Shown: positions 40,390 to 55,020 of the stretch, piece by piece | Position numbering within the stretch: position 1 is the stretch's first letter | Layout of the letters: each line of letters starts with the position of its first letter | Source of the DNA: a virus | Lineage: Duplodnaviria; Caudoviricetes | DNA length: 64,000 bases | Strand: one strand, 5' to 3' | IMG/VR virus record: IMGVR_UViG_3300042885_001472 | The notes under the pieces: generated by a model | Seen by the model: the letters and a program-made list of their open reading frames with translations, nothing else | Told to the model about the DNA's origin: nothing | Databases searched by the model: none | Translations under genes and position numbers: made by a program

Positions 40390-40396
40390 ATAATTT

Positions 40397-40597: not shown

Positions 40598-40620
40598 AAT
40601 ATTACAAAAAAATAAATAAA

Positions 40621-40848
40621 ATGGGAGAAATTTATACAAACATCGTTTATCAAAAACCAGTTCCAATTAGTGAATTTAAACCAACATCACCAATGATTAA
40701 TCCAATTACTTATGAATTAATAAACCCAGAATCATGGGAAGATGGTTTATATTTATCACCAAATTTAATGGATGAAAATCTAAAGATAAATATGGTATTT
40801 GAAGTAAAGGATAAAAAAGTGGTTAGAGTATATAAATCGAAGGTATGA
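40621..40848 (+). CDS. Hypothetical protein, possibly the relic of a cassette
   Basis: 75-aa ORF; stop is followed at once by the cassette flank GTAGTATTGGTTATAAC. Confidence 0.55.
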   Translation: MGEIYTNIVYQKPVPISEFKPTSPMINPITYELINPESWEDGLYLSPNLMDENLKINMVFEVKDKKVVRVYKSKV

Positions 40849-41065
40849 TGTAGTATTGGTTATAACGGTTGGATATTGGCTTTCTAACCATTTATATAAT
40901 GCCAAAATGAGCTAATATTTTGTTAGTATTTCGTTTACTTTTACTTTTTTAGGGGTCCATTATAAAATTAAACTATCTGATTTATAGCACTTTACAAAAA
41001 TAATGTAAATATATGAGATGTATATAATATATATAATGTATATTTACACTATAAAACTAAACAAT

Positions 41066-41347
41066 ATGAGAAATTTAATATCAGTAAGCAATCAAACAGT
41101 AAGAGTAGGTAACTTTATTATTAGCAATGTTGCAGAATATGTTTTAGATAATGGAAATAACCAAATAGAATTTAAACTTGTTTCTGCTACTGACAATTTA
41201 GATATGGTTGTCTTAAAAAGTTTAGGTATTAAAAAGGTAGAGTTTAATGCAATGAATAATAACCACATTGATAAATTTATTGAAGGGTCAAAACAAGTTT
41301 ATTTCACAAATGATTTTTTTAATTCATTAATAAAATTAACAGTATAG
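41066..41347 (+). CDS. Cassette hypothetical protein
   Basis: Probable ATG 41066 within ORF 41018..41347. Confidence 0.55.
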   Translation: MRNLISVSNQTVRVGNFIISNVAEYVLDNGNNQIEFKLVSATDNLDMVVLKSLGIKKVEFNAMNNNHIDKFIEGSKQVYFTNDFFNSLIKLTV

Positions 41348-41577
41348 TAAAATGAAAAAACTTACTAAAATACTTCAAAGTTTAAATCGCTTTGCAATCG
41401 GTTTGATTTGTAACAATGTCTACCGAAACGCTAATAACAAAGATAACTGCTTAATGGACTTTTGCAAAGAAAAATAATAAATGTCTACCGTTTTTGCAAA
41501 AGCTTATACGTCTGCCAAACTGTTGCCAAAGCGTGTGTTATGTGACGTTTTTTTATTAATAAACTAAAATTAAAATT

Positions 41578-41775
41578 ATGGAAATAGGAAAATTAAAAGT
41601 AGTATTCATTCTGTCTAATGGTCAAACTTTGACAATTAAATGTAAAAAGTTTAGTATGACAAAACTTAGCGGAACAAAAGGTGAAAGGGAAATTTCGGTT
41701 GAAGGAGCTGATAGAATATGGTCTGTTGACTTAGATGAGGTAGTGGGAATAACTGCTAGATGGTGTCTACTTTAA
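41578..41775 (+). CDS. Cassette hypothetical protein
   Basis: 65 aa; unit 41537-41788 flanked by GTTATGTGAC / GACACATAAC. Confidence 0.65.
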   Translation: MEIGKLKVVFILSNGQTLTIKCKKFSMTKLSGTKGEREISVEGADRIWSVDLDEVVGITARWCLL

Positions 41776-41942
41776 AATGACACATAACGGTTGCAAATAT
41801 AAAACGTTTATTAAACTAAACTTAAATTGAAAAACAGAATATAAATATAAACACAACAATAAATTTGGAACACTGGAATAAATGTTTTATATTTGTTGTT
41901 ATAAGTATGTATTATTTTTTAAACACTAAATTAAATAGAATT

Positions 41943-42149
41943 ATGAAAGACATTAAAGAAATGGAAGTAGAAGAACTTCGCAAAGAAATGGACGAACTTT
42001 GGGGATATTTATATATGACAAGAGAAGTCGGTGCTTATGATAAATTTGAGTGGAACGGATTAGATTATTGGGATGCTGATAGAAGACATCACAAAGTATC
42101 ACAAGAAGTTCTTCTACGGAGTATATTAGAACTCACTGATAAAAAATAA
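41943..42149 (+). CDS. Cassette hypothetical protein
   Basis: ATG 41943; unit 41898-42162. Confidence 0.65.
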   Translation: MKDIKEMEVEELRKEMDELWGYLYMTREVGAYDKFEWNGLDYWDADRRHHKVSQEVLLRSILELTDKK

Positions 42150-42223
42150 TATTACCTATAACGATTTGCGTATATACGCAGTGCTAACGAAAATTTAATT
42201 TGAAATACAAAATTTAATAATAT

Positions 42224-42415
42224 ATGAAAACTTTAATTGGAAAAATGAAAGCATTGCGTATATACGCTGTTATAAGCAGTGCTTTTAAACACGATTGTTG
42301 GATGAACAAGAAAATGGTATCAGCTTCTTATTTCAAAGATGGTGATAGCAGTGTAATATTTTCAACTGGTAAAAAATATTGTTGTGAAAAATGTGGGAAT
42401 CAGTGGTCTGAATAG
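42224..42415 (+). CDS. Cassette protein with Cys motifs; start codon lies inside the hairpin loop
   Basis: HDC...CCEKC; reads through the right arm as ALRIYAVISS; unit 42269-42428. Confidence 0.6.
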   Translation: MKTLIGKMKALRIYAVISSAFKHDCWMNKKMVSASYFKDGDSSVIFSTGKKYCCEKCGNQWSE

Positions 42416-42519
42416 CATTGCTTATAACGTTTTGCAGCTAATAAATCGGCTTGCTGTTTATTAGGTGCGGTTATAGGTATGTGTTTTTTGCGTAGGAATT
42501 AACAACTAAAATTATAAAT

Positions 42520-42687
42520 ATGAAAATTAAAATTAAAACCGAAAAAGTAGAATTTGAATTTGATGATGAGAAAATTTTTCAAATGGGAAATTATTTTGAA
42601 AAGGAAAATAAAGCTGTTTTAGAATTTCTAAAGGAGTGTATTCAAAAGGTAAGTGAGGAATCGATTAAAATTAATAAACGTGAGTAG
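42520..42687 (+). CDS. Cassette hypothetical protein (55 aa, below the ORF-track cut-off)
   Basis: MKIKIKTEKVEFEFDDEKIF...KINKRE*; unit 42470-42715. Confidence 0.6.
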   Translation: MKIKIKTEKVEFEFDDEKIFQMGNYFEKENKAVLEFLKECIQKVSEESIKINKRE

Positions 42688-42772
42688 TGCGGTGGGTAAA
42701 AACATTACCTATAACGGTTTGCAGCTTTGAGCCGTTTAAACGAATATTAATTTAAAACAATAATTAACGAAT

Positions 42773-43000
42773 ATGAAAAATGAAACAATAAAAAATGGCT
42801 TAAAGGTGCTGTTAGTAGCTGTTATTTTTTGCGGTTGTGATACTACTGTAAGGAAAAATTTAACAGGTGAAAAATATTTTGGAAGTGATATAGAAGTGCT
42901 TGTAGTCGATAGTTGTGAGTATCTGATTTTTGCTTCTGGTACGAGAAGTGTAACGCATAAGGGGAACTGTAAATATTGTGCAGAACGTAGCAAAAAATAA
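42773..43000 (+). CDS. Cassette-encoded putative small lipoprotein
   Basis: MKNETIKNGLKVLLVAVIFCG-C signal/lipobox; C-terminal THKGNCKYC; paralogue of 52583..52846. Confidence 0.65.
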   Translation: MKNETIKNGLKVLLVAVIFCGCDTTVRKNLTGEKYFGSDIEVLVVDSCEYLIFASGTRSVTHKGNCKYCAERSKK

Positions 43001-43116
43001 TTGCTACTAACGGTTGAGGCTATGAGTAGTTGCCTTGTAAATACTGCTCAATTAACCACAAACGCTGATAGGCAATTGCTTATAGCCTTTGTTATAGGTT
43101 GTAAAATTTATGGATT

Positions 43117-43359
43117 ATGAAAGTAACAGATTTTATTGGAGTGAAAGCTAAATACGATGAAGATGGACAATTTATTTGGGGAATTGAAAAGGATGGTGGA
43201 CATCAAAAACTTGCTGATTTAAGAGGTTGGGGAGCAATTCAAAACTTATTCATCAATAAGGATAAAACTATTGATTTAGATGCAGCAGCAAGTTTTCAAG
43301 ATGAATTTGGCAGATGGATTGTCGAGGCTATAAACGAGAAATTGGAATGGGAACGGTAG
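43117..43359 (+). CDS. Cassette hypothetical protein
   Basis: 80 aa; unit 43091-43379. Confidence 0.7.
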   Translation: MKVTDFIGVKAKYDEDGQFIWGIEKDGGHQKLADLRGWGAIQNLFINKDKTIDLDAAASFQDEFGRWIVEAINEKLEWER

Positions 43360-43500
43360 TAAATTTTATTACCTATAACGGTTGGCGATTGGTGTCTGTT
43401 ATTTTGCCTTGCAGACATTTCAATTTTACGATAAACTTAATAGGCAAAATTATAGCACCAATTGCTTGTTAGCAGTATGTGTTTTTAAACTTTTTTAGCG

Positions 43501-43695
43501 ATGGCAGGATTAAATTATGGAAACTCTTTTACAAAAAAAAGAGGTATGTATAAAAATAAAAAGGTTGGAGTTAGTTACGCTGAGTTGGCGGATAAATGGA
43601 TTGTAAGAATATTAAAAAATGGAACAGTAACAACAATTGCACAATTTAAAACAAAGGAGGAAACGGATGAATATTACGGTGCGTTGGCAGTTTAA
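43501..43695 (+). CDS. Cassette hypothetical protein, possibly AP2-like DNA-binding
   Basis: VGVSYAELADKWIVRI...IAQFKTKEE loosely resembles AP2 domains; unit 43468-43711. Confidence 0.45.
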   Translation: MAGLNYGNSFTKKRGMYKNKKVGVSYAELADKWIVRILKNGTVTTIAQFKTKEETDEYYGALAV

Positions 43696-43762
43696 AAACA
43701 TTACTGCTAACGTTTTGCAGCTAAACTTAGTTTATTAACCGAATTTAAAACACAATGTAATT

Positions 43763-44011
43763 ATGGAATACAAATCAGAAGATTTTATATCATTTATAGA
43801 GAATAACAGACGAGATAAGGTAAGCCCTAACGGACTTGAATTAATTGCTAAACGTTTTAGGGAACTGGAATGCGAGGTTAATAAATTGAGTTTAGCTGCT
43901 GTTAGCGGTTCGTTGAGTAGTAAATGTTTTACGTTAGCGAATGAATTGGCAATAGCTGGTTATGGAAACGAAGCCGTTATGTTACACTCAATTAGTAATT
44001 CAATACAATGA
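43763..44011 (+). CDS. Cassette protein whose N-terminal half is encoded in the loop of a 195-nt hairpin
   Basis: Reads through the right arm as VNKLSLAAVSGS; unit 43901-44019. Confidence 0.6.
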   Translation: MEYKSEDFISFIENNRRDKVSPNGLELIAKRFRELECEVNKLSLAAVSGSLSSKCFTLANELAIAGYGNEAVMLHSISNSIQ

Positions 44012-44108
44012 CCGCTAACGTTATCGAGCCTTGCACAGCTAAGGTGTCGCCCGGGTTGGGTTATAGGTAGGTTGTAACGAATGTTTAATTAATACACAAT
44101 TTAAAAAT

Positions 44109-44369
44109 ATGGAAAATACAGATTTAATAGGAGAAGATTTTTATCAAATAGAAAAACAAAAAGGTAATATTTTAGATGTAAATAGTGCTATGGCTTTTAA
44201 AATAGCTTGGGATTATGCAATTGGTTATCATAAAAATAAGGTTAAAATAATAGAATTAGAGCTATTAAAATACAAAGAATTAGAAAAAAAAGTTCGTGAA
44301 ATTTCTGATAATATTAATACTAAGCAAAGTATATCTTATTGCGTTATGGAACATTTTAAAATTATATAA
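44109..44369 (+). CDS. Cassette hypothetical protein
   Basis: 86 aa; unit 44060-44408. Confidence 0.6.
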   Translation: MENTDLIGEDFYQIEKQKGNILDVNSAMAFKIAWDYAIGYHKNKVKIIELELLKYKELEKKVREISDNINTKQSISYCVMEHFKII

Positions 44370-44520
44370 TCAAAAATGTTTCTAAATGATACACAACTTA
44401 CCTATAACGTTTTCGAGCTAAGCCCTCGTTTTAATGGGGCTTAGGTTGTGTTACCTGCTGGCGGCAGAGAAATGTTGCTATAAGACTTTAATATAAAAAA
44501 TAACTTAAAATAAATATAAA

Positions 44521-44991
44521 ATGGAAAGAAGCGATTTTAGAATCATAGAAAGACTGAACTCATTTGGTAAATCTGAATTTATTATCCAACATAAAAAACA
44601 TAAAATGGTTGGAGGTTTCTTCGGACTATTTGGTGGTACTATGCAAGATGTATGGGAAGACTTCTACCTAGAAGTATATGAATGCTATGTAAACGACCAA
44701 CACAGATTTCATAAATATCTATTTATACAAAATTGGAAAGAAAATACAGAAGAAGAAATTGAGTTCTATATAGAACACTTCAATAGAAAACCAATTGAGT
44801 ATAGAGGATATAAATTAATTCCGATTGTTTCATACTTTGGTCAAAAATGCCTAACCTATTATGACCCTAAATCATTTTGTAGAAGAGGTAATTACAACTA
44901 TGGTTATAGAATATATAGTAGTGAATATGAATCCAAGAAGTATATAGATGATAAATTAGATAAAGGCAGAATATTAAATATTTATGAATAA
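44521..44991 (+). CDS. Cassette hypothetical protein (last cassette of array 1)
   Basis: 156 aa; unit 44450-45084. Confidence 0.7.
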   Translation: MERSDFRIIERLNSFGKSEFIIQHKKHKMVGGFFGLFGGTMQDVWEDFYLEVYECYVNDQHRFHKYLFIQNWKENTEEEIEFYIEHFNRKPIEYRGYKLIPIVSYFGQKCLTYYDPKSFCRRGNYNYGYRIYSSEYESKKYIDDKLDKGRILNIYE

Positions 44992-45081
44992 TATGAAGAT
45001 TCCAATAGGTGAAAATGAAATAGTTTAGATTTTTTTAACGGCACATACAAAACTATTTCAAAGTAGCTACCGCTTGCAGGT

Positions 45082-45170
45082 AACTATTATATATAAACAA
45101 GTATAGTCTAAACCCTTTAATAACAATACTTTGAACCAAAAAATTATAAAGATTTGTAAATAAAAGTTTA
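45082..45170. repeat. attI-like array-terminal site, copy 1
   Basis: AAC-TATTATATATAAACAAGTATAGTCTAAACCCTTTAA...GATTTGT..AAAAGTTTA; 83/89 identical to 54821-54909 by manual alignment; no hairpin. Confidence 0.75.
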
Positions 45171-45251
45171 ATTATCTTTTAAAGATGAAAATCACTAAAT
45201 AAAATTAGGAAAATATAAATTAATATGTTATCTTTGTAAAAAATATATGTT

Positions 45252-45710
45252 ATGGAAAGTTTAGATGTTAAAAATTTTTGTTTAGTTATATTAGGTAAAC
45301 AAAATGACGTTAAAAAAGAGTTAGAATTTATTTCTGAAGGACCAATAAATTATGTTGAGGGAAAATATTTATTCATCGCAACTTTTAAATCAACATTGTT
45401 CGCGAAGGATATTGAAATCTTTTTAAGTAGTTCCAATATAAATTATATCTTATCTGAAATGGTTTCTTCATTATTTTCGGCTGATCTTGGTGAGTTTAAT
45501 TCAGCACTATTTAATTTAAATCAAAATACTAATATTTTTGAGAAAAAAATTGTTGTAGATTATACTGGAACTGAAGAAGCTGTAATTATTGATGAAGAAG
45601 ATGAAAATTTAACTTTAGATGAATTATTGGATTTAGTGTCTGAAATAGGATTGGATAAATTAACAAGTAAACAAAAAGAACTTTTAAATAAATTTTCACT
45701 AAATAAATAA
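45252..45710 (+). CDS. Hypothetical protein
   Basis: 152 aa; TATCTTTG promoter element at 45229-45236. Confidence 0.7.
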   Translation: MESLDVKNFCLVILGKQNDVKKELEFISEGPINYVEGKYLFIATFKSTLFAKDIEIFLSSSNINYILSEMVSSLFSADLGEFNSALFNLNQNTNIFEKKIVVDYTGTEEAVIIDEEDENLTLDELLDLVSEIGLDKLTSKQKELLNKFSLNK

Positions 45711-45711
45711 T

Positions 45712-46521
45712 ATGGTAAATAAAAAATTCATTAATGGTCAAGAAGATTCAATTTCAAATTACCTTAAGGATGTAAAAAAGTGTGGTGTTATTAACACTGA
45801 CACTGAAGTTGAATTAGCTAAAAGAATACAAGAAGGTGATCAAGTTGCCGCTGATGAATTGGCTAAAGCTAATCTTAGATTTGTTATATCAATCGCCAAA
45901 GAATATCAAAATCAGGGATTACCATTAGCGGATTTAATTTCAGAAGGTAATTACGGATTGATTATAGCGGCTCAACGATTTGACTATACAAAAGGGTTTA
46001 AATTTATTTCTTACGCTGTATGGTGGATAAAACAATCTATTATGCAGTCACTAAACGAACATTCCAGAACTGTTCGGTTACCAACTAATGTTATCAATAA
46101 ACTTTCTAAAATTAAGAAAGAGATAGATGCGTTTGAGCAAAAGTTTGAAAGAAAACCAGTATTAGGTGATGAAATTGAAATGGTATTCCACCCAACAGTG
46201 ATATCGTTAAGTACAACAATAAATGATGATGGTGATGAGTTAATTGAAGTTATTGAAGATCCTAACATTAATAGTCCGGACAATGATCCATATAATGAGT
46301 ACGACATTAAAGAACGTATGAATAAAATTCTATCAATTCTTTCTGAAAGGGAGAAAAATGTGATTGAGTTATATTATGGTATAAATGGATCACCTTTAAC
46401 ATTGGAAGAAATTGGTGAGGAATATGATTTAACTAAAGAAAGAATTCGTCAAATTAAAGAAAAATGTATCAGAAAACTTAGAAATAATGCTGATGTCTTA
46501 CAACAACAATTATTTGGATAA
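45712..46521 (+). CDS. rpoD: RNA polymerase sigma70-family factor, Bacteroidota primary-sigma-like
   Basis: ANLRFVISIAKEYQNQG, DLISEGNYGL, GFKFISYAVWWIKQSI, RTVRLP, region 4 LTLEEIGEEYDLTKERIRQIKEK; no region 1.1. Confidence 0.92.
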   Translation: MVNKKFINGQEDSISNYLKDVKKCGVINTDTEVELAKRIQEGDQVAADELAKANLRFVISIAKEYQNQGLPLADLISEGNYGLIIAAQRFDYTKGFKFISYAVWWIKQSIMQSLNEHSRTVRLPTNVINKLSKIKKEIDAFEQKFERKPVLGDEIEMVFHPTVISLSTTINDDGDELIEVIEDPNINSPDNDPYNEYDIKERMNKILSILSEREKNVIELYYGINGSPLTLEEIGEEYDLTKERIRQIKEKCIRKLRNNADVLQQQLFG

Positions 46522-46666
46522 ATATGAATAAATTTAATGAGTGGTGGAACGAAGTTTTATTCGTTATTAATATTAGTATCTTTGAAATATCTGTTGATAA
46601 TGGAATGATTTGTTCATTGATATTGATAATTTTTGGATTAATGAGTTTATAAATAAAACAAATAAT

Positions 46667-46846
46667 ATGAAAAAAGACATTGAAATTAGTGTAACTGAAA
46701 CAAAATCAGTTGAACATGTTAGTTATGAAGAGTTGTATAACTCATTAAGAGATAGAATTAGATTAATTCAACAACTTAATGATAAATACGAAAATGATGA
46801 AGATTTTGGTAGAAATTTAAGAAAATTATTGAATTTAGGTGGGTAA
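46667..46846 (+). CDS. Hypothetical protein
   Basis: Probable ATG 46667; ends GGTGGGTAA just before the first hairpin of array 2. Confidence 0.55.
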   Translation: MKKDIEISVTETKSVEHVSYEELYNSLRDRIRLIQQLNDKYENDEDFGRNLRKLLNLGG

Positions 46847-46933
46847 AAATATTGATACTAACGGTATCGGACTTGGCGATGTTGCCGAAAACAAATGTTA
46901 ATTAGAATTACTAAACTTTAAATTATAGATAAA

Positions 46934-47230
46934 ATGTCAAACGAAGAAATGAACGGCAATATTGTCAAACCCGTGTTACCTGTTGTACTTATTTGCGATT
47001 GCAGTAGCCGTGAACACCAAATTATCATTGAACACAACAATGAAGATAACTTAACCTACTGCCATATTCATTTGGTAAAACACGGCTTTTGGCGAAGATT
47101 GAAAGTTGGTTTAAAATACATATTTGGTTATAAATGTAGATACGGTCAATGGGATGAATTTATATTAAAACCCGAACACGCTAACCAGCTTCGTGAATTG
47201 TCGAATTTTCTTTCACAGCATAGCAGGTAA
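46934..47230 (+). CDS. Cassette hypothetical protein starting in a hairpin loop
   Basis: MSNEEMNGNIVKPVLPVV...CDC...EH; stop TAA is part of the AAC core; unit 46975-47231. Confidence 0.65.
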   Translation: MSNEEMNGNIVKPVLPVVLICDCSSREHQIIIEHNNEDNLTYCHIHLVKHGFWRRLKVGLKYIFGYKCRYGQWDEFILKPEHANQLRELSNFLSQHSR

Positions 47231-47351
47231 CGGTTGAGTAGTAAAAAATTCTAAAACTAAAAATTATGTATACAAAAGATTTATATGGATTTAATCCAGT
47301 TACAATTGGCCAACACAGGTTGGTTATATTTATTTATTTATAACTAATAAC

Positions 47352-47651
47352 ATGAAAACTAAACAAGAAATAGAAAAGTTAGCTGAGCAATATTTACAAA
47401 AAAATAAACATAATTTTGATACTTGGAAAGAGATAGAACATGTTAAAATTAGTTATATAGATGCTTACACTCAATGCCAAGAAGATGTAGATTGGGAATT
47501 ATTAGTGAAGTTGATTAAAAGGTATACAGAAGAAGATTTACTTCACGCTTTTAGAGAAGGAGTTTTATTACCTAACTCACAAATTGGTATAATGGAAGAT
47601 ATATTTAAACAAGTAGTTCAATCACTAAACAAACAAGACAATGAAAACTAA
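47352..47651 (+). CDS. MKTK(E/Q)EIE..LAE family protein, copy 1
   Basis: Shared blocks MKTKxEIExLAE, YTQCQED, YTEED, SLNKxD. Confidence 0.7.
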   Translation: MKTKQEIEKLAEQYLQKNKHNFDTWKEIEHVKISYIDAYTQCQEDVDWELLVKLIKRYTEEDLLHAFREGVLLPNSQIGIMEDIFKQVVQSLNKQDNEN

Positions 47652-47907
47652 AGAAGAAATAGAACAGTTAGCTGAAGAATTTGGGGATAAATATGCTGAT
47701 AACGGAAATCATAAATATGGTTTTATCAAAGGCTACACTCAATGCCAAGAAGATATGGCTGATAAGAAATCCACAGAGGAAGATATTAGAAAGGCTATTG
47801 AAGTTGGTGTAAATGCAGAAGCCGGTGATTATCCAAAAGGTTTTACACACAAACTTGGAATTAGCTTAGAAGATTATTTTATTAACTCACTAAACAAAAA
47901 AGACTAA
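47641..47907 (+). CDS. MKTK(E/Q)EIE..LAE family protein, copy 2
   Basis: Same conserved blocks. Confidence 0.7.
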   Translation: MKTKEEIEQLAEEFGDKYADNGNHKYGFIKGYTQCQEDMADKKSTEEDIRKAIEVGVNAEAGDYPKGFTHKLGISLEDYFINSLNKKD

Positions 47908-47908
47908 T

Positions 47909-48196
47909 ATGAAAAGCAAAGAAGAAATAGAACAGTTAGCTGAAAATCAATATCCAATTGAAGTAGGAGGTTCGATGTGGATGCCTAATACTAATGATAT
48001 TAAAAAGGCTAATGAACAAGAAGGTTACATAAAAGGTTACATTCAATGCCAACAAGATATGGCTGATAAGAAATATACAAAGGCACAAATTATATGGGTA
48101 ATACAAGAAGCATACGGACACGGTAGAGATAGTGAAGACACTATTGAAGAAAGTATTGATTATATTTTTAACTCACTAAACAAACAAGACTTATGA
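47909..48196 (+). CDS. MKTK(E/Q)EIE..LAE family protein, copy 3
   Basis: Same conserved blocks. Confidence 0.7.
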   Translation: MKSKEEIEQLAENQYPIEVGGSMWMPNTNDIKKANEQEGYIKGYIQCQQDMADKKYTKAQIIWVIQEAYGHGRDSEDTIEESIDYIFNSLNKQDL

Positions 48197-48298
48197 TACA
48201 AAAGATTTATCTAAATGTAATTAGTTTTATATTTTTATTAATTGCAAAATTGATTATTAAATGTTTAGATTTTATCAACTCATTAAACAAACAAAACA

Positions 48299-49183
48299 AT
48301 GACCAGTAAAGAAGTAATGGATGCAGCATTTAATTTAGCTAATAATAAACAAAAGACAATGAAAAACATACACATATTGCCAACGGATAAACCAAGTATA
48401 TTACATTTATATACTGATGAAAATGGCACAAGACTTGAAACTTTTGAAGTAGAATATTCACACACAAGAGATACTCAACACATCTACATCACTTCTGATG
48501 AAGAAATTAAAGATGGAGATTGGTATTTAGACACCTTTAATAATCAAAGAATTAAAGCTAATGAATTTTCAGACCATAAACATTACGGAAATGCTTGTAA
48601 AAAAATCATCCTAACAACAGACCAAGACTTAATTACAGATGGTGTTCAAGCTATTGATGATAAGTTTTTAGAATGGTTTGTAAATAACAGTAGTTGTGAA
48701 AGTGTTGAGGTTGTAAAAGACGGTTTAAAAGTTAAAGAGGGAGGTATTCAAGAACTAATGGAAGATGAGTATTATCAAAAATTCCCAGAAGAGCTTCCAA
48801 ACTGCGTTTTTATTGATAAATATGAAATCATCATTCCACAAGAAGAACCTAAACAAGAAACACTTGAAGAAGTTCAATTAGCTATTTTATTTCATAATAC
48901 TTATGAGAATTTAGCACCAAATTTTGGTTATGAAACAAGAGCAGATACAAAATCATTTGAAACTACTACTCCAAATGGAATGTTAATGATTGCTGTTTGT
49001 AAAGAAATAATTAAATGGCAACAAGAAAGAAGTTATAGTGAGGAAGAAGTAAAAGAAATAATTAAACTTTCTTGTGAAAAAGGTATGCTGATTCAAAGAA
49101 CTATAAATGATAAAGTTAAAATTCCATATACAAGAATAAAAGACTTTACGATTAAAATGTTGGAACAATTTAAAAAGAAATAG
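48299..49183 (+). CDS. Hypothetical phage protein
   Basis: 294 aa; KNIHILPTDKPS, HIYITSDEEIKDGDW, CKKIILTTDQDL; C-terminal YSEEEV resembles the YTEED block of its neighbours. Confidence 0.7.
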   Translation: MTSKEVMDAAFNLANNKQKTMKNIHILPTDKPSILHLYTDENGTRLETFEVEYSHTRDTQHIYITSDEEIKDGDWYLDTFNNQRIKANEFSDHKHYGNACKKIILTTDQDLITDGVQAIDDKFLEWFVNNSSCESVEVVKDGLKVKEGGIQELMEDEYYQKFPEELPNCVFIDKYEIIIPQEEPKQETLEEVQLAILFHNTYENLAPNFGYETRADTKSFETTTPNGMLMIAVCKEIIKWQQERSYSEEEVKEIIKLSCEKGMLIQRTINDKVKIPYTRIKDFTIKMLEQFKKK

Positions 49184-49184
49184 T

Positions 49185-49511
49185 ATGAAAACTAAAGAAG
49201 AAATAGAACAGTTAGCTGAAAGCCAATATGGAACTGAAATAGGCAGTATAAGAGGGAGTAATCCTTATGACTTAGAAGGAAATAGAAAAAATGGCTTAAA
49301 GGTGCTGTTAGTGGATGATAAAATTAAGTATGATGATTTAAAAGACGGAGATATTTATGAGCAGGAACAAAGCAAAGGCGAATGGGTAAAAGGAAAAATT
49401 TGCCACCATTGGAGAGGTAGTTTAATGATAGAATTAATTGAAGGAAGATTGAATGGGAAGCAATGGTATTTGTTTCCTGATTTAAAGAGATTAAGGCGTG
49501 TGGCAGCTTAA
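49185..49511 (+). CDS. Chimeric ORF: MKTKEE-family N-terminus fused through an att right arm to a cassette gene
   Basis: First 36 nt identical to 47641; contains AAAAATGGCTTAAAGGTGCTGTTAGT, identical to 42792-42816; unit 49307-49528. Confidence 0.65.
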   Translation: MKTKEEIEQLAESQYGTEIGSIRGSNPYDLEGNRKNGLKVLLVDDKIKYDDLKDGDIYEQEQSKGEWVKGKICHHWRGSLMIELIEGRLNGKQWYLFPDLKRLRRVAA

Positions 49512-49774
49512 TTTTATTTGCCACTAACGGTTGAGTGTATGAGAAGGTTTGCTTTGTTAAACTTTCAAATTACCACCGACCTTTGTAGCTAACTTTCTTA
49601 TACACCTTGTTATAACCAGTACGGATAAATTAGCACTGAACTTGATACGAAGAACGAATAAAAACTTTTTAAAAATGTGCGGTGGAAAACTTGATTAATT
49701 TAAAAATAAGTAGTATATCTGTAATATCATAATAATAATAAACTAATAAACTAATAAACTAAAAAATTAAACAA

Positions 49775-50368
49775 ATGGCAAAATTTATTGAAACAATTTA
49801 TCCAACTATTGAAGATAGAGTAAGTAGATGGGAAACAATGGGAATGTTACATATAGTTAAATCTGATGATTCTAAAAAATTGGTGGCGATGGCACTTGAT
49901 GCAACTGCAATATATCTTACAGAATTTAATTTTAAAAATTTTGATAACGATACAAAAACGGTTTTAATACCAGTAATTGTAAGAATTTTCAACGAAACAA
50001 ACAAAGATTTCACATTAGAAACATTAACTAAATCAGTTAGAAGAATAATTGAAGATTTTGTGGAAAAATATGAAGAAGCAAAACCTAAGTTTAACCCATT
50101 AACTTCCGAAAGAGATGATGATGCTGAATTTATTGCGTTATATTGCGAAAACTATTCTTTTGATGAAAACAAAATTAAAATTAAATTTAAAATTACATTT
50201 TGGAAAGATATTCCAGAAAGAACATTTATAATTGATGATACCAACTTCTTTCCAAAATATTTTATGGGGTTGGATGGTATTTTATATGAAAATTATGGAA
50301 CAGAGGAAAAACCAATGTGGGAAAATGTTTTTGATAGTGACTATGAGATTGAAATTGTTAATCTTTAA
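49775..50368 (+). CDS. Cassette protein resembling the N-terminal region of T4-like major capsid proteins
   Basis: RWETMGMLH...MALDATAIYL...IPVIVRIF parallels gp23-type KW..GLL.GL...A.LLEN.A..L...P.VRR.F (recalled pattern, not searched). Confidence 0.4.
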   Translation: MAKFIETIYPTIEDRVSRWETMGMLHIVKSDDSKKLVAMALDATAIYLTEFNFKNFDNDTKTVLIPVIVRIFNETNKDFTLETLTKSVRRIIEDFVEKYEEAKPKFNPLTSERDDDAEFIALYCENYSFDENKIKIKFKITFWKDIPERTFIIDDTNFFPKYFMGLDGILYENYGTEEKPMWENVFDSDYEIEIVNL

Positions 50369-50570
50369 GGTGGGAAATTTTTAAAAAGTTTTTCTCACAG
50401 AACTTAAATATGGAACACGAATGTAGTATTGGTTATAACGGTTGGGTGTATGAGAAGGTTTGCTTAGATGAACTTTCAAATTATACACAACTGTTATAAC
50501 CAGTACGGTTAATTTAAGATAAAACTTGATTAAATGAATAATAATTAGTATATTTGTAAAAAAATAAATT

Positions 50571-51044
50571 ATGGAAAACATATTAAAAAGGCTTGAATAT
50601 AAAATATTTAAGAAATACGAAAAAAAGATTGAAGATGTAAAAGATTATGTATGGGATTATAAAAAAATCAATAATGACATTACTCAACTTGAACACAATG
50701 AAACATTGAGTCGTTTTGTGTTATATTATATGAAAGAATTTAACTTAGATGTAATAATTACATCTGGAGAAATTTGCACTATATTTCAAAACTTTAGTAA
50801 TTTTTATATTATTGGTGAAAACGATGTATATAATTATAAAAGATATAAATCTGACATTAGTAATGATTTTGAACCATTTTACCTTATCAAAGAAGAAGAT
50901 AATAATATTGGGGTTGTAATTAAAACCAATATTAGAATTGAACCGAATAATATTATACTAACAAACACTGAAGGTTCTAATTATAAAATAATTGATGTTT
51001 GGAATTTACCAAGTGTTAAACTAACTGAATGTTTTAAAAAATAA
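50571..51044 (+). CDS. Cassette hypothetical protein
   Basis: 157 aa; TATATTTG promoter at 50549; two-gene unit 50493-51405. Confidence 0.7.
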   Translation: MENILKRLEYKIFKKYEKKIEDVKDYVWDYKKINNDITQLEHNETLSRFVLYYMKEFNLDVIITSGEICTIFQNFSNFYIIGENDVYNYKRYKSDISNDFEPFYLIKEEDNNIGVVIKTNIRIEPNNIILTNTEGSNYKIIDVWNLPSVKLTECFKK

Positions 51045-51048
51045 AGAT

Positions 51049-51387
51049 ATGGAAAAAGAAAATTTAAAAACTGGGGTGTACCTCATAAAAGCGGATAGTA
51101 AAGATTATTCCTTAACAAAAGAGAAAGAAGAGAAAATAAATTCATTAGAAATTAATGAAGAACATAAAGATTTTTTCAAAAATCTTTTTAGAGAAGAACC
51201 AACACCAAAAGGTTATGATTTATTAGTTGAATTGGTTGGTCAAAATCCTTTTTTAAAAATCAAAAGTGTTAAAAATAATGATACTGGTGAAAATATTACT
51301 GAACAATTTACTGATAAAAATATTGATGATGTTAATTCTTTATGGTTATTTACTAAACATTTAGAATGGGTTCTTCAGAACATATAA
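51049..51387 (+). CDS. Cassette hypothetical protein
   Basis: 112 aa; second gene of unit 50493-51405. Confidence 0.7.
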   Translation: MEKENLKTGVYLIKADSKDYSLTKEKEEKINSLEINEEHKDFFKNLFREEPTPKGYDLLVELVGQNPFLKIKSVKNNDTGENITEQFTDKNIDDVNSLWLFTKHLEWVLQNI

Positions 51388-51532
51388 CGTAGTATTGGTT
51401 ATAACGTTTTGCAGCTTTAAGAAGTGGCTGCCTAACGGAAAGTTCAAAGTTCGCACAATGTTTATGGCAGCTTTTGCCAAACCGCTGTTATGTGCTGGGC
51501 GGATTATCAGTACTAATTTTAATTTAAAAACG

Positions 51533-51745
51533 ATGTACAAAGCATTTCAAAACAAAAAGTATTATTTGGCGTTTAACCGATTTCCTAAAACTGCCAAAAA
51601 AGTAGGGGGTGTGCATAAAGCATATTCAACAGGATTTAGAAAATGGAATTCTGATGATATGATTACCTACGCAATAGTTGTCGGCACATTCAGGATTATG
51701 TTTGGAATTAAAACGCCAAATTATACTTGTGATGAAGGATGTTAG
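51533..51745 (+). CDS. Cassette hypothetical protein
   Basis: ATG 51533 (the longer track ORF runs through the hairpin); unit 51487-51758. Confidence 0.6.
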   Translation: MYKAFQNKKYYLAFNRFPKTAKKVGGVHKAYSTGFRKWNSDDMITYAIVVGTFRIMFGIKTPNYTCDEGC

Positions 51746-51815
51746 CCTTGCACATAACGCTTTGCAGCTTTGAGCCGTTTACCAAATATTAATAACAAAA
51801 AAATAAATAACGAAT

Positions 51816-51995
51816 ATGCCAAAAACAATACATGCAAAAAGAGAAGATTTAATTTGCGGAAAAATAGACTTAGCACAAGATATGGCTATTAAATTAAAAA
51901 GTATCGAATTACTTGAATTATTAGATAGTATCAGATATGATGCTGTAAGAATGGAACAAAAACTTATTAGCAGAAAACAGGAATCAAAAATATAA
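51816..51995 (+). CDS. Cassette hypothetical protein (59 aa) starting at a hairpin-loop ATG
   Basis: MPKTIHAKREDLICGKIDL...QESKI*; same AACGAATATG context as 42773 and 53389. Confidence 0.55.
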   Translation: MPKTIHAKREDLICGKIDLAQDMAIKLKSIELLELLDSIRYDAVRMEQKLISRKQESKI

Positions 51996-52176
51996 ATAAC
52001 AGAACCACCGCTTGCAGGTAACGGTTTGCAGATTGCCGAAGGTGGCGAAATCGAAGCACTAAACTTGATATAAAAACGAATGTTAAACCGAAGCACAACA
52101 GTTGATATTAGCACTAAACCGCCACTTTTGGCAATGTGCTGTTATAAGCCGTTTTTCTTCACAAATCAAAAAATAA

Positions 52177-52516
52177 ATGGATTTACGAATTGAATACATT
52201 TTCAGAGAAGAAATGAAAAGAGATACATCTTTTCAAGAAAAAAAAAACTGGGTTAAGTTTGCTTTTCGGAACAAACAAATACTCTAAACAAGAAATGAGA
52301 GAAACTTGGGATAGAGGTATTAAACTTGGAATAGAAATAGGATTGCGAAAAGCAAGTTTAGAAGGACAAAGGATTGAACTTAATCACAATACACCCGAAG
52401 GAAAGCATAAGGAATTTCTTGAAAAGTTTTATCAATTGGCTGATGAATATAAATGTGCTGTCCAATTTCATCTCGAATTTGGAATGGTAGTAGTTGCTCG
52501 TCAAAATGGCTTATAA
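52177..52516 (+). pseudogene. Cassette gene frameshifted at an A10 tract (or slippage-controlled)
   Basis: ATG 52177 joins ORF 52259..52516 in frame if A10 at 52238-52247 were A9; unit 52141-52517. Confidence 0.55.
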
Positions 52517-52582
52517 CGGTTTGCAGATAAGCGAAGGCAAAGATTTAGAAACGAAAATTTTAACTTAAAAACAAATATAATT

Positions 52583-52846
52583 ATGAAAACGAGAACATCA
52601 TTAAACCACAGAACCTTTGCTTTTGCTTATGTGCTGTTAGTAGCTGTTATTTTTTGCGGCTGTGAGGATATGAATAGAGCCGAAGAACGCTCAAAAGTAT
52701 TTAAAACAGCAGTAGAAGTTAATGGCTACCAAATATCAATAATAGAATTTGATAGTTGTCAATACTTAATATCAGGCGTTGGCTACTCACAAATGATGAC
52801 ACATAAAGGGAACTGTAAATTTTGTACAGAACGTAGCAAAAAATAA
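52583..52846 (+). CDS. Cassette-encoded putative small lipoprotein
   Basis: ...FAYVLLVAVIFCG-C; C-terminal THKGNCKFC; unit 52636-52857. Confidence 0.65.
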   Translation: MKTRTSLNHRTFAFAYVLLVAVIFCGCEDMNRAEERSKVFKTAVEVNGYQISIIEFDSCQYLISGVGYSQMMTHKGNCKFCTERSKK

Positions 52847-52976
52847 TTGCTACTAACGTTTTGCAGCTAATAGACGGGCTGGAAACTTATATAATTCCGC
52901 CTGTTTATTAGGTGCTGTTATAGGTAGTGCCAAATATAAATACTAAAAGAATATTAATAATTAAAAAATAGAAATA

Positions 52977-53318
52977 ATGAACTTAAAAGAATTTGTAAAA
53001 TTTACATTTGAAAAATACGAAAAAAACGGGTATTGTTTTAGACCTAGAATAGTTTGTAATGATGGGTTTTCAATGAGTGTACAAGGTAGTAACGCATTAT
53101 ATTGTAGACCGAGAATTACACAAGATTGGTATGATAAAATGGAAATAGGTTATCCATCAGCAGAAGAAATTGATATAATAGAATTTGCTGAGGATATTAC
53201 AAAACCAACTGATACCGTTTATGGTTATGTGCCATGTGAACTTATTGAAAAAGTTATTTTAAAACACGGTGGTATTAACTCGGTTGAAACATTTAAAGCT
53301 TCTAAGGATATTAAATAG
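52977..53318 (+). CDS. Cassette conserved phage hypothetical protein
   Basis: CNDGFSMSVQGS..YC.PR...EIGYPS...PTDTVYGYVP...KHGG; unit 52917-53332. Confidence 0.7.
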   Translation: MNLKEFVKFTFEKYEKNGYCFRPRIVCNDGFSMSVQGSNALYCRPRITQDWYDKMEIGYPSAEEIDIIEFAEDITKPTDTVYGYVPCELIEKVILKHGGINSVETFKASKDIK

Positions 53319-53388
53319 GCATTACCTATAACGGTTTGCAGCTTTGAGCCGTTTAAACGAATATTAATTTAAAACTAAAACAACGAAT

Positions 53389-53484
53389 ATGAATAACAAT
53401 GAAATAGAAAATGGCGCAAAGGTGATGTTGGTACCAGTAGCCAAATTAAAATTTAAAAACAATAACTTAAAAATACAATTATGA
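53389..53484 (+). CDS. Hairpin-encoded leader peptide (31 aa) whose TGA overlaps the next ATG
   Basis: MNNNEIENGAKVMLVPVAKLKFKNNNLKIQL*; ATGA overlap at 53481-53484. Confidence 0.45.
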   Translation: MNNNEIENGAKVMLVPVAKLKFKNNNLKIQL

Positions 53485-53741
53485 AAAACAACAAAGAAAA
53501 ATCGTACCAATACGCATCGATGATACAAGAGGCAATAGCTGAATTGATTTCAGAACACGAATTATTAGCTGATTTTGATGATGAAAATAACGCAACTGCA
53601 TTTTTACACGCATTAGCTAATGTAGTGCCATGTAATATTTATAAGAAATTAACTAATGATAATACTGATATTTTAGGTTTTAATCATATTGCTAATAGAT
53701 TAGTATATCAATTTACAAAGCAGGACGAAGCCGAAGCGTAA
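53481..53741 (+). CDS. Cassette hypothetical protein
   Basis: 86 aa; unit 53427-53765. Confidence 0.7.
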   Translation: MKNNKEKSYQYASMIQEAIAELISEHELLADFDDENNATAFLHALANVVPCNIYKKLTNDNTDILGFNHIANRLVYQFTKQDEAEA

Positions 53742-53885
53742 ACGCCAAGGGCTATTGGTACTAACGGTCGGCAATATGAAACGGTTGCCCTTGTAAGACG
53801 TTTCAAAATATGATGCAGTTTTCTGGCAACTGTTTTATATTGCTTGTTATAGCCAGTTAATTTTAATCAATAAAAACGAAAAAAG

Positions 53886-54086
53886 ATGGAAGCACCTAAA
53901 TTAAATGAAGTATGGCATGTTCAATATGGAGAAGCCATTGGTAAAGAATACAATATCCTTGTAAGAATAGATGAGGATAAAAAAGAGTTAAATCCACCGA
54001 ATTGGAGAAGAAACAAGTATAAATGTGAGCATAAAAGTAAGGAACTGATGGTAGGTGGAAATATGTTCATTGAACGGTTTTCTTAA
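53886..54086 (+). CDS. Cassette hypothetical protein
   Basis: 66 aa; unit 53846-54097. Confidence 0.65.
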   Translation: MEAPKLNEVWHVQYGEAIGKEYNILVRIDEDKKELNPPNWRRNKYKCEHKSKELMVGGNMFIERFS

Positions 54087-54297
54087 TTGGCTATAACGGT
54101 TGGGTGTATGAGAAGGTTTGCTTAGATGAACTTTCAAATTATGCACAAATGCTGATAGCAAACTTTCTTATACACCTTGTTATGTGTAGGTGTGGTTAAT
54201 TAAGGTAGAATGTTCAATTGGATAACTGAACAAAAATTTTAAAAGAAAAAGAAAGGTGGATTTTTATTATTTTAATATTTATATATAAAAGAAAACA

Positions 54298-54747
54298 ATG
54301 AAAGATTTGAAACAATTTATTAAAACAACCATACGAGAGTTTTTGAATGAGAGTTCAATTGGGAATATTGAATATAAAATAACATATTCACCACCAGAAA
54401 ATATTCATGTTGTAGCAAAGATTGATGGTGTTATAATTGGAACATTATCTATAATAGATGATAGTCATTTCTTATCAACAGAAGATGAACCAACATTTAC
54501 AATTATGTCAGTATTTGTAGATAAAGAATATAGACAAAAAGGTATTTATATAAATTTAATCAAATATTTTTTACTAAATAATAAATATGGTGTCAAATCG
54601 TTATATTCTTCAAAAGAACCAGAATTTGATACAGAAAAAAGAACATCGGTTGCTGATGGTTTTTGGAAAAATGTTTATACAAATCAAAATAAATATGGTG
54701 TAAATGTTGATAAAATAGATAATGATTATGAAATTTCTTTAAAATAA
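54298..54747 (+). CDS. GNAT-family acetyltransferase-like protein (last cassette of array 2)
   Basis: FTIMSVFVDKEYRQKGIYINLI acetyl-CoA-binding motif A; ADGFWK; leader MKDLKQFIKTTIREFLNES. Confidence 0.7.
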   Translation: MKDLKQFIKTTIREFLNESSIGNIEYKITYSPPENIHVVAKIDGVIIGTLSIIDDSHFLSTEDEPTFTIMSVFVDKEYRQKGIYINLIKYFLLNNKYGVKSLYSSKEPEFDTEKRTSVADGFWKNVYTNQNKYGVNVDKIDNDYEISLK

Positions 54748-54820
54748 GTGCGGTGGTATTTTTCTTTTAAAATTTCCAACCGAAATATTGATTAGAAGGA
54801 TGAACGGAACACTTACACAT

Positions 54821-54909
54821 AACTATTATATATAAACAAGTATGGTCTAAACCCTTTAAAATTAATACTTTGAACCAAAAAATTATAAAGATTTGTTAAG
54901 AAAAGTTTA
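54821..54909. repeat. attI-like array-terminal site, copy 2
   Basis: Near-identical to 45082-45170 and begins at the AAC core of the last cassette. Confidence 0.75.
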
Positions 54910-55020
54910 TATATTATAAAATATAACCCAATAACACATAATTAATTCATTAATAACCTCCACTTTAACAATAAATTGATTATTTTTTTATTATAATAAT
55001 ATTTATATTAAAAAAAAGAT

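Follow-up and report, generated by a model that had tools for sequence, protein, structure and literature searches.

The window, that is, the whole 64,000-nt stretch of phage DNA that was analysed, carries two arrays of gene cassettes on its + strand, each ending in a copy of the same 89-bp sequence (the 89-mer). Array 1 (40602..45084) comprises a first unit without a leading hairpin and 10 further units starting ...AAC|GKTT, with the junction C at 40866, 41788, 42162, 42428, 42715, 43011, 43379, 43711, 44019, and 44408. Array 2 (46660..54823) has a first unit followed by 12 others (about 20 ORFs), the junction C lying at 46862, 47231, 49528, 50439, 51405, 51758, 52022, 52517, 52857, 53332, 53765, and 54097. 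On the left, each array begins within a unit that lacks its hairpin. The junction motif is strand-specific and clustered, and the cassettes take the form GKTT-hairpin-GTTATAG...gene...YTAYTAAC, in which the hairpin belongs with the downstream gene, as several hairpins enclose that gene's start codon.

All 22 sites are imperfect hairpins that qualify as attC-type, since AAC pairs with GTT and is followed by a variable L stem (the L stems all differ in sequence and all pair). The + strand hairpin is more stable than that of the - strand in 20 of the 22 (mean -3.05 kcal/mol, p = 1.4e-4) and a G:T position recurs in the 15-bp R stem, as is required of integron sites, where one G:T-carrying strand folds better; the extrahelical bases near L'' are missing, and 3–5 unpaired nt are found instead on the arm carrying AAC, where they separate the R and L stems. 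A cassette's end pairs with its own hairpin arm better than a neighbour's end does in 18/20 comparisons (11.85 vs. 7.55 of 15 positions, p = 2.4e-4). The two 15-nt ends of a cassette are mutually complementary, as expected of former circles. No tyrosine recombinase was detected among the ten window proteins scanned (not every window ORF was scanned), and with 10 and 12 sites the arrays fulfil, within that limit, the definition of a CALIN (at least two attC-type sites and no integrase nearby).

The first-pass annotation had claimed that both arrays run into one attI-like site, whose copies at 45082-45170 (copy A) and 54821-54909 (copy B) differ at 6 of 89 positions, and sequence comparison reproduced these figures, with four mismatches in positions 1-49 and two in positions 50-88. 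Pieces of 31 and 20 nt from the 89-mer occur exactly twice in the window (shuffle expectations 0 and 0.2, respectively). Identity begins, as had been stated, at the (T)AAC that closes the last cassette, and the 15 nt to the left belong to that cassette: the R''-type 3' end of array 1 (45070..45084, + strand) is complementary to the GTT arm at 44450-44464 in 13/15 positions and that of array 2 (54809..54823, + strand) to 54179-54193 in 14/15. Both terminal cassettes are complete with matching ends fused to the docking site, and the end motif of array 1, GCAGGTAAC, also precedes an ordinary hairpin at 52022. The non-hairpin character of the 89-mer was borne out, as neither strand folds better than shuffled sequence (z between -0.36 and +1.22), while two cassette hairpins folded alongside it do so on the + strand (z -2.9 and -4.3).

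The attI-like reading holds for about 49 nt only, the last 40 nt being dead recombinase codons. The docking sites proper lie on the + strand at 45082..45130 (crossover triplet AAC 45082-45084, then the core TATTATATATA) and 54821..54869 (AAC 54821-54823); both are non-folding, align with 43 non-redundant phage loci and have a core equal to the family consensus. Positions 50-89 correspond to the first 13 codons of a recombinase gene, cut off and stop-containing. In copy A this dead 5' stub occupies 45131..45170 (+ strand; TTG start at 45131, codons 1-13, stop TAA at 45161-45163) and its homology to intact genes ends at about 45169; in copy B it occupies 54870..54915 (+ strand; TTG at 54870, TAA at 54897-54899) with homology extending to about +95. 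Both stop codons fall at codon 10 or 11; in intact relatives the sequence from the same TTG/ATG onwards is MNQKIIKICEEKFIYL..., and third codon positions vary synonymously between them. Of the several cores proposed earlier, which correspond to four or five AAC triplets on the + strand, the first alone is conserved throughout the family; the sole other candidate is a weaker TAA block near +27, and accessory direct repeats could not be established.

Docking site and recombinase gene in relatives

An exact 20-mer scan of metagenome contigs recovered eight homologues of the 89-mer (77–81 of 89 positions identical) with seven distinct left flanks, all of them cassette-end-like (ATTRCnnnT|AAC). Every copy found abuts a cassette end at its AAC, which agrees with the earlier expectation that the site adjoins a cassette flank; an integrase nearby had also been named as a point to check, and a homologous site lies directly upstream of a recombinase gene across the phage family. 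In four contigs (L070, L083, L092, L095) the homologue continues into a 266-aa gene starting with TTG/ATG at 89-mer position 50-52, whose product has a SAM-like N-terminal domain and matches Pfam Phage_integrase (1.7e-34 in L095 and 4.1e-38 in L092, the only two scanned). A protein-based search, independent of the DNA motif, yielded 61 IMG/VR loci with 26–85% identity, 58 of which hold the 5' end of the gene. In 56 of these 58, AAC|TAT..TATATA precedes the start codon by 48–58 nt (by 38 nt in one locus), and the other two have a one-letter core variant in the same place. The 43 non-redundant phage loci have a non-folding site with the core TAAC|TATTATATATA at 48–58 nt before the 266-aa Xer-like tyrosine recombinase gene, a variable cassette end always adjoining; TAAC and TAT..TATATA are nearly invariant in their alignment. 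The hairpin motif is enriched upstream of the recombinase on the same strand (e.g., 12:0 and 13:2). The relatives thereby possess a primary site beside the recombinase gene where cassettes enter; in the window, the gene itself survives only as stubs.

The 89-mer fixes the polarity of the system, because it shows both the end of the array and the direction of the recombinase gene: the cassette genes point towards the docking site and the recombinase, in the window as in its phage relatives. This supports the reversed polarity inferred from the window alone, and the integron rule that genes read away from attI, with expression driven by a promoter at attI/intI, does not fit, as all cassette genes run the other way.

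It had also been predicted that relatives would differ mainly in the cassettes next to the site, and otherwise identical site-plus-recombinase contigs do differ by whole cassettes at AAC|TATT. Two contigs, L070 and L082, are 100% identical on both sides, and L082 has five additional cassettes (1527 nt) placed exactly between ...CCTAAC and TATT; a similar indel of about 800 nt separates L123 from L125. Four further groups share an identical or 98.8%-identical site plus recombinase next to unrelated cassettes. The junctions fall at one triplet, with only 3–7 letters shared. Both indel cases come from short metagenomic contigs and the shared flanks (118–127 nt) are terminal in them, which leaves assembly-graph effects possible. 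The proposed deletion of the segment between copies A and B was not seen in any contig.

Related phages encoding a 152-aa protein 84–88% identical to that of the window carry neither array, and no 89-mer, at the same backbone positions: array 1 is missing from L063-L069, array 2 from L063, L066, and L068, and a single gene takes the place of array 2 in L069. The array blocks are bracketed by 18–26-nt direct repeats of backbone sequence. For array 1 plus its 89-mer this is a 26-nt repeat at 40575-40600 and 45180..45205 (+ strand), the right copy matching the 3' end of a 66-aa backbone gene at 24/26 positions; the relatives have a single copy, immediately before the 152-aa gene. Between stub B and the backbone, a junction remnant (54916..54929, + strand), judged against the empty site in L066 and against L069, resembles the backbone letters of the left junction (46650-46659). 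The backbone operons downstream of the copies comprise the 152-aa gene plus a sigma factor and a 101-aa gene with those following it.

Homologous recombinases (41–50% identical) occur in chromosomes of Flavobacterium, Aquimarina, and Tenacibaculum (loci L158-L188). The first-pass annotation had proposed that hairpins in Bacteroidota chromosomes are oriented oppositely to those of the phage, and this is the case in L170 (Flavobacterium), the one relative read in detail, where the sequence in gene direction is ...TAAC-A...AAC|GTTATAGG. Its recombinase gene is followed by a site on the other strand and by genes pointing away, each with a hairpin behind it whose antisense strand contains AACGKT. 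At 12 chromosomal loci a similar site is found 110–135 nt past the recombinase stop codon. The Flavobacteriaceae arrays resemble those of the phages in the homologous recombinase, in the core (AAC|TWGTTTATAT in the 12 loci) and in hairpins with TAAC...GTTATAG cores (read in L170), but differ in the placement of the site, which comes after the 3' end of the recombinase gene and is on the opposite strand, and, in L170, in the classical polarity of genes that point away from it.

Proposed mechanism and competing explanations

We consider it probable that each 89-mer is a copy of the array-recombinase junction of an integron-like system with reversed cassette polarity, carried by large phages of Bacteroidota type. 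Comparison of the contigs establishes the homology of the 89-mer to that junction and the exact cassette-sized differences at AAC|TATT, together with the reversed gene polarity and the mirror-image layout of the single chromosomal relative read in detail, whereas the chemistry, the recombined strand, action in trans, and the present-day activity of both copies are inferred from comparative evidence without any experiment. The recombinase would cut the gene-sense strand within AAC or right behind it (the exact position cannot be told from the sequence); as the better-folding one, this strand would be the equivalent of the integron 'bottom strand'. The enzyme would then join a folded cassette site to the docking site, so that new cassettes would enter immediately left of TATT and the newest gene would stand at the 3' end of the row, pointing to the docking site and the recombinase gene. 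The window copies, having no recombinase of their own, would need to be served in trans. It counts against this mechanism that the recombinase has no counterpart of the IntI-specific insertion, and that the unpaired bases of the hairpins are placed differently from those of classical attC sites.

More tentatively, and at somewhat less than even odds, a single Xer-like recombinase may serve several docking sites across the genome of a giant lytic-type phage, the satellite copies consisting of a site plus a dead stub and the captured genes being stacked in mirror image. Under such a multi-locus arrangement each array would feed a different backbone operon, one of which encodes a phage sigma factor.

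The explanation that survives best beside the docking-site reading is that array-site-recombinase modules decayed, or were copied in segments, and left the two copies behind; the site would then be unused and the arrays frozen, making the 89-mer a scar and not a working docking site. The stop codons in both stubs are compatible with this, as are the left ends inside hairpin-less units, which would be expected of non-specific block copying. Other loci likewise show a recombinase gene decaying in place, with an internal deletion in L153-L156 and with no more than a stub in L079 (24 codons) and L150 (83 codons). Moreover, no cassette variation was observed at the window copies in 99.8–100% identical contigs from separate samples (nine spanning junction A and eight junction B, thirteen distinct in all), hence present activity is unproven and the window copies may be inactive relics. 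Against it, L069 has an orthologous copy B with an identical right junction, and this same stub locus adjoins one gene there vs. 13 units in the window, the DNA to the right being 97.4% identical; both cores equal the family consensus, and both terminal cassettes are complete with matching ends. We consider frozen remains unlikely, but by no means a negligible possibility.

It is improbable that general recombination swaps the units at short motifs with the recombinase gene as a bystander, in the manner suggested for the promoter/stem-loop cassettes of T4-type phages, even though the phage is T4-like (an SbcC/gp46-type nuclease, many small early genes) and the direct repeats around the array blocks have a homology-driven look, given that the recombinase family is accompanied by one and the same core in 58 phage loci and has a similar one nearby in 12 chromosomal loci, that the junctions share no more than 3–7 letters at one triplet, and that self-complementary 15-nt cassette ends with a conserved one-strand G:T pair fit a folded-site mechanism. 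A duplicated promoter or leader region copied before two operons is scarcely tenable: both copies do lie upstream of backbone operons and positions 48-76 read TTTG-N19-AGATTTG, near the Bacteroidota -33/-7 consensus TTTG...TAnnTTTG, but the recombinase gene of relatives has this stretch as its codons 1-9, in relatives without arrays the downstream genes are preceded by a sequence of their own instead of the 89-mer, and each copy found adjoins a cassette end, so that a Bacteroidota sigma-A promoter conserved with the downstream genes was rejected.

Relation to known systems

The IntI enzyme is the defining feature of integrons, in which all cassettes are oriented away from attI; an IntI-specific insertion of roughly 50 residues is thought necessary for recombination of hairpin sites. 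The docking-site system of the phages shares with classical integrons (class 1, Vibrio chromosomal) mostly single-gene cassettes in a row, imperfect hairpins with AAC/GTT cores, a non-folding primary site by the 5' end of the recombinase gene, putative exchange in the AAC of the better-folding, G:T-carrying strand, and cassette ends that match as in excised circles. It differs in its 266-aa Xer-like enzyme, in cassette genes that lie on the folding strand and point to attI and the recombinase, in an R stem of about 15 bp, in its lytic-type giant phage carriers, and in extra docking sites within one genome that have no adjacent recombinase. The relatives' recombinase aligns with VchIntIA (2A3V) over residues 17-177 and 208-262, with 31 residues opposite 79, and its best PDB match is a XerC-like protein; the additional domain of IntI (I2 helix, between patches II and III; integron sensu Cury et al. 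2016 / IntegronFinder) is missing, and the system is for this reason integron-like and not an integron. Classical attC sites have their unpaired bases near L'' (Nivina et al. 2016, PMC5027507), whereas here they separate the R stem from the L stem on the AAC arm.

Qi et al. (2023, PMC9892861) report CALINs (attC clusters without integrase) in virulent phages, e.g., Polaribacter phage P12002L, and used bacterial IntI1 to test their sites. The main text of that study, as far as it was searched, describes no phage-specific recombinase (Xer is not mentioned), reversed polarity, or phage docking site. The window arrays, too, group hairpin sites in a phage without a recombinase gene detected in the vicinity, but each ends in a docking site plus a recombinase stub, and such stubs are a practical marker for orphan arrays. 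A literature search found no published description of the phage system, the virulent-phage CALINs (PMC9892861) being nearest; what the present analysis adds is that the 89-mer consists of a site and a stub of the recombinase gene, that there are relatives with an empty site, and that cassette indels fall exactly at the junction.

The phage system thus has the logic of integrons (folded sites, a docking site, circular cassettes) and departs from them in its plain Xer-like enzyme, reversed gene polarity, and carriage by phages. If active, it would provide, with the Flavobacteriaceae chromosome, a natural mirror-image pair for studying what determines the orientation of cassettes, and would account for some of the turnover of small genes in large aquatic phages. 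Arbiol and co-workers are said to have described, in 2010, a modular shuffling at promoter-early stem-loops (PeSL) in T4-type phages, with the exchange attributed to general recombination at repeats that carry promoters. There too, hyperplastic regions of a T4-like phage hold small accessory genes with repeated stem-loops on either side; the present system stands apart through its dedicated recombinase, its docking site, and junctions that are precise to one triplet. In CTX phage, attP in the form of folded single-stranded DNA is recombined at dif by XerC/XerD, which brings a whole phage genome into a chromosome and not gene cassettes into an array. It nevertheless offers the parallel of a Xer-type enzyme without the IntI insertion that can join a folded single-strand hairpin to a double-strand site, and an active phage system would mean that gene capture at hairpin sites does not need that insertion either.

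The proposed docking site and its recombinase

Two copies of an 89-bp sequence had been proposed as attI-like sites, and the presence of both was confirmed, at 45082-45170 (copy A, the right end of array 1) and 54821-54909 (copy B, the right end of array 2), with 6 differences over 89 nt. Across the 64 kb of the window, pieces of 20 nt and 31 nt each had exactly two occurrences; shuffled sequences contained them virtually never. When metagenome contigs were scanned for exact 20-mers, 8 true homologues (77-81/89 identical) were retrieved with 7 different left flanks, every one of the cassette-end type, and in all 8 the homology began at the (T)AAC. In L092, L095, L083, and L070 the homologue ran on into a gene for a 266-aa protein, which in the two contigs scanned (L092 and L095) matched Pfam Phage_integrase (down to 4e-38) and carried a SAM-like N-terminal domain.

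The recombinase start codon lies at positions 50-52 of the 89-mer (TTG, or ATG in L070), and as the changes separating relatives downstream of it are synonymous third-position ones, the frame from position 50 is coding. Since the gene starts here in intact relatives, positions 50-89 of the window copies represent recombinase codons 1-13; they translate as LNQKIIKICK-stop in copy A and LNQKIIKIC-stop in copy B, and the homology to intact genes stops at +88 and +95, respectively. From these alignments, we take only about 49 nt to be the site and the remainder to be a dead recombinase stub: the attI-like site itself is supported, its length of 89 bp is not. In intact relatives (e.g., L092), the docking site and the first recombinase codons are framed by an inverted repeat of 9-10 nt (TATATAAAC / GTTTATATA, at 8-16 and 83-91); copy A has this repeat only in truncated form. 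Of the four shortened copies that were compared first, three end within or just past its right arm (+88, +89, +95).

Folding of the 89-mer was no better than that of shuffles on either strand of either copy, so a hairpin was rejected, in keeping with the non-hairpin site originally described. A Bacteroidota promoter at positions 48-76 was dropped as well, the same letters being recombinase codons 1-9 in intact relatives.

The recombinase family was searched for by protein, independently of the DNA motif, yielding 61 IMG/VR loci (26-85% identical). Among the 58 loci containing the 5' end of the gene, 56 had AAC and then TAT..TATATA ahead of the start codon, at a distance of 48-58 nt (one locus: 38 nt), and the other two had the core with a one-letter variant at the same position. 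The left flank of the site was variable and of cassette type, and the hairpin motif was enriched upstream on the same strand, with no enrichment downstream. When 43 non-redundant sites were aligned together with copies A and B, TAAC and TAT..TATATA proved near-invariant, all other positions being only weakly conserved; the accessory direct repeats attributed to the site were abandoned, as no conservation of them was found in this alignment. The recombinase is Xer-like, and against VchIntIA (2A3V) it gave two aligned blocks with no space for the IntI-specific insertion.

Cassette units and their inferred gain or loss

The motif TAACGKT was found 23 times on the + strand of the window vs. 5 times on the - strand, 20 of the + strand matches lying within 40.8-44.4 kb and 46.8-54.1 kb. 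Each match there marks an imperfect hairpin at its 5' arm; the hairpin consists of YTAYTAAC, unpaired bases (GKTT; 3-5 nt), a stem and loop of variable sequence, and YTGTTATAG. Its partner arm was located by a bounded search, and the + strand hairpin was more stable than that of the - strand in 20 of the 22 sites, by 3.05 kcal/mol on average (p = 1.4e-4, Wilcoxon). Because the next gene has its start codon inside the hairpin in several cases (e.g., 42162, 42715, and 52517) and the paralogous genes at 42773 and 52583 are similar as far as ...CTACTAACG and diverge beyond it, the cassette unit was delimited as GKTT-hairpin-gene-...AAC, in which the hairpin belongs with the gene downstream of it. 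In the hairpins at 42162-42279, 42715-42830, and 52517-52645, the 3' arm lies within the next gene, with the ribosome site and start codon in the loop. In two paralogues, a hairpin arm codes for part of a lipoprotein-type signal peptide; the sequences of these two arm pairs differ, and the pairing is present in both.

The ends of a unit also match each other: the 15 nt from each GTT arm (the hairpin-side start of a cassette) were complementary to the last 15 nt of their own unit (mean 11.85/15) and more weakly to the end of the preceding one (mean 7.55/15), the own end pairing better in 18/20 units (p = 2.4e-4), usually with a single G:T position as the mismatch. The two ends of a cassette pair into an R stem of ~15 bp, in which a single G:T pair of the + strand, equivalent to C:A on the opposite strand, is almost always present ~10-11 nt away from the AAC. 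The units adjoining the two 89-mers are complete (own-end pairing 13/15 and 14/15), so the letters before the AAC belong to the cassettes, as claimed in the first-pass annotation. In both arrays the 3' end of the first unit is of cassette type, but no hairpin leads this unit.

The unit at 47231-49528 is 2.3 kb long, with no internal hairpin and four or five ORFs, several of which share their first ~12 residues (MKTKEEIEQLAE; repeats at 47339, 47628, 47896, and 49172). At 48699 (12988 in L058, 9561 in L059), inside the ORF at 48299-49183, these two population contigs, otherwise 99.8% identical, depart from the window, so that the C-terminal part of the product differs (347 aa in L059). Across 48.0-49.2 kb, public contigs have a 10-50x higher read depth, so far more abundant genomes share this segment of the gene. 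Two cassettes contain, between hairpin and gene, a Bacteroidota-type promoter close to consensus (TTG-N19/20-TAnnTTTG; 49686-49732 and 50521-50567), and some cassettes at least may thus drive their own expression.

Metagenomic contigs from loci of the recombinase family give evidence of cassette gain and loss at the AAC|TATT junction. Contigs L070 and L082 match at 100% identity for 127 nt on the left side and 121 nt on the right side of a point at which L082 has five additional whole cassettes (1527 nt), placed precisely between ...CCTAAC and TATT, and the pattern recurs with ~800 nt between L123 and L125; in both cases the shared left flank is at a contig end. Such whole-cassette differences between otherwise identical contigs support the exchange at AAC that had been deduced from the window. 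Furthermore, site plus recombinase (250 nt compared) were identical within the groups L122/L123/L125, L129/L131, and L134/L135, and 98.8% identical between L107 and L117, with unrelated adjoining cassettes within every one of these four groups. In the first three, the longer alignments (1.2-3.2 kb, 95.6-100% identical) start ≤ 3 nt from the AAC.

History and surroundings of the window copies

In backbone relatives (152-aa protein 84-88% identical), the backbone is the same and both arrays and the 89-mer are absent. There, 50 nt separate the 66-aa gene from the 152-aa gene downstream of it, and 0-3 unrelated small ORFs lie between the sigma gene and the 100-aa gene that comes after it. In the window, a direct repeat of 26 nt (24/26; 40575-40600 and 45180-45205), corresponding to the end of the 66-aa gene, flanks array 1 plus its 89-mer on both sides, and array 2 plus its 89-mer is flanked by similar, but shorter and more diverged, backbone letters (46650-46659 and 54916-54929). 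Given these bracketing repeats and the first units without a leading hairpin, the block boundaries on either side resemble breakpoints of a non-specific or short-homology kind. The flanking repeats suggest that short-homology recombination, and not the site-specific enzyme, brought the blocks in or is able to remove them. Either the entire module decayed in place, or a piece that starts within an array and extends 88-95 nt into the recombinase gene was copied to another location. Decay in place is evident at other loci, namely as stubs of 24 codons in L079 and 83 codons in L150, and in the four IMG/VR contigs L153-L156 (8001-8170) as an in-frame-looking deletion that fuses codon 37 to the last ~17 codons of the recombinase gene, with the upstream site and array intact.

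In the relative L069, site 1 (the position of array 1) is empty, and site 2 (that of array 2) holds a single gene whose last letters are ...GAGTAAC, followed by site and stub; the right junction is as in copy B, and the identity beyond it is 97.4%. Because the junction is that of copy B, the stub locus at site 2 is common to two lineages (1 vs. 13 units), and this difference is the only evidence for past use of a satellite site, i.e., a docking site without a recombinase beside it. The divergence of copy B from L069 (1/49 site positions) was uninformative about selection on the site, the neighbouring DNA being 97.4% identical. No cassette variation was seen at junction A (nine contigs) or B (eight contigs) among the contigs covering them, all 99.8-100% identical to the window, which counts against present activity of the window copies. 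All 24 matching public runs are available only as short contigs that break in the 89-mer; neither junction appeared among the subset of joints listed, so these runs say nothing about activity.

The window is phage-type, with 29% G+C and genes on one strand. It encodes an SbcC/gp46-like nuclease (38152-40389), a sigma-70 family protein (45712-46521), and, between a 101-aa and a 299-aa gene, a GIY-YIG/NUMOD homing endonuclease (55326-56060), the position of which is vacant in the relatives L063, L066, L067, and L068; L066 has a gene resembling the GIY-YIG endonuclease at a different place on the opposite strand. In the window (38152-40389 and 37036-38088), the SbcC-like protein has 745 aa vs. 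792 aa in relatives. Its N-terminus weakly matches a Pfam intein splicing domain (3e-4, residues 12-124), and it may be another intein-split gene of this genome. Megablast of 16 kb of the window gave no close GenBank phage match, an exact 26-mer scan of IMG/VR found nothing, and no Rfam family matched within 40000-56000. In relatives located via the sigma factor (57 IMG/VR loci; 26-63% identical, ≥ 42% in all except one), the hairpin motif was not in excess and the 89-mer was absent.

Polarity and comparison with integrons

On the gene strand, the phage order is cassette genes, site, and recombinase gene, all in one direction; genes thus read towards the site and the recombinase in the family loci, as the first-pass annotation had inferred in postulating a reversed polarity. 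Chromosomal relatives of the recombinase (41-50% identical) were found in Flavobacterium, Aquimarina, Tenacibaculum, and others, and in 12 of these loci a core resembling that of the phages (AAC|TWGTTTATAT) lies 110-135 nt beyond the stop codon, on the other strand. In L170, the sole chromosomal locus read in detail, the genes after the site point away from it and a hairpin follows each gene, reading ...ATAAC-A...GGGAAC|GTTATAGG, which places AACGKT on the antisense strand. The phage layout mirrors that of L170 relative to the genes, and the opposite orientation of chromosomal hairpins, stated in the first-pass annotation, was borne out at this one locus. Its interpretation (an attI-like site, exchange at AAC, and reversed polarity) is supported, as far as sequence comparison can tell.

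No published description of this system was found in the literature searched. The nearest work deals with CALINs in virulent phages, which were tested with IntI1 (PMC9892861). In classical integrons, exchange takes place in the AAC of the bottom strand, extrahelical bases lie near L'', G:T pairs are more numerous on the bottom strand, and reversed cassettes have never been observed (Nivina et al. 2016, PMC5027507). The phage sites keep the AAC-exchange and G:T-pair rules, but break those on extrahelical bases near L'' and on reversed cassettes. Judged by its predicted enzyme, its gene polarity, and the placement of the unpaired bases, the system fails membership of the integron family; it is integron-like in its working, but not an integron.
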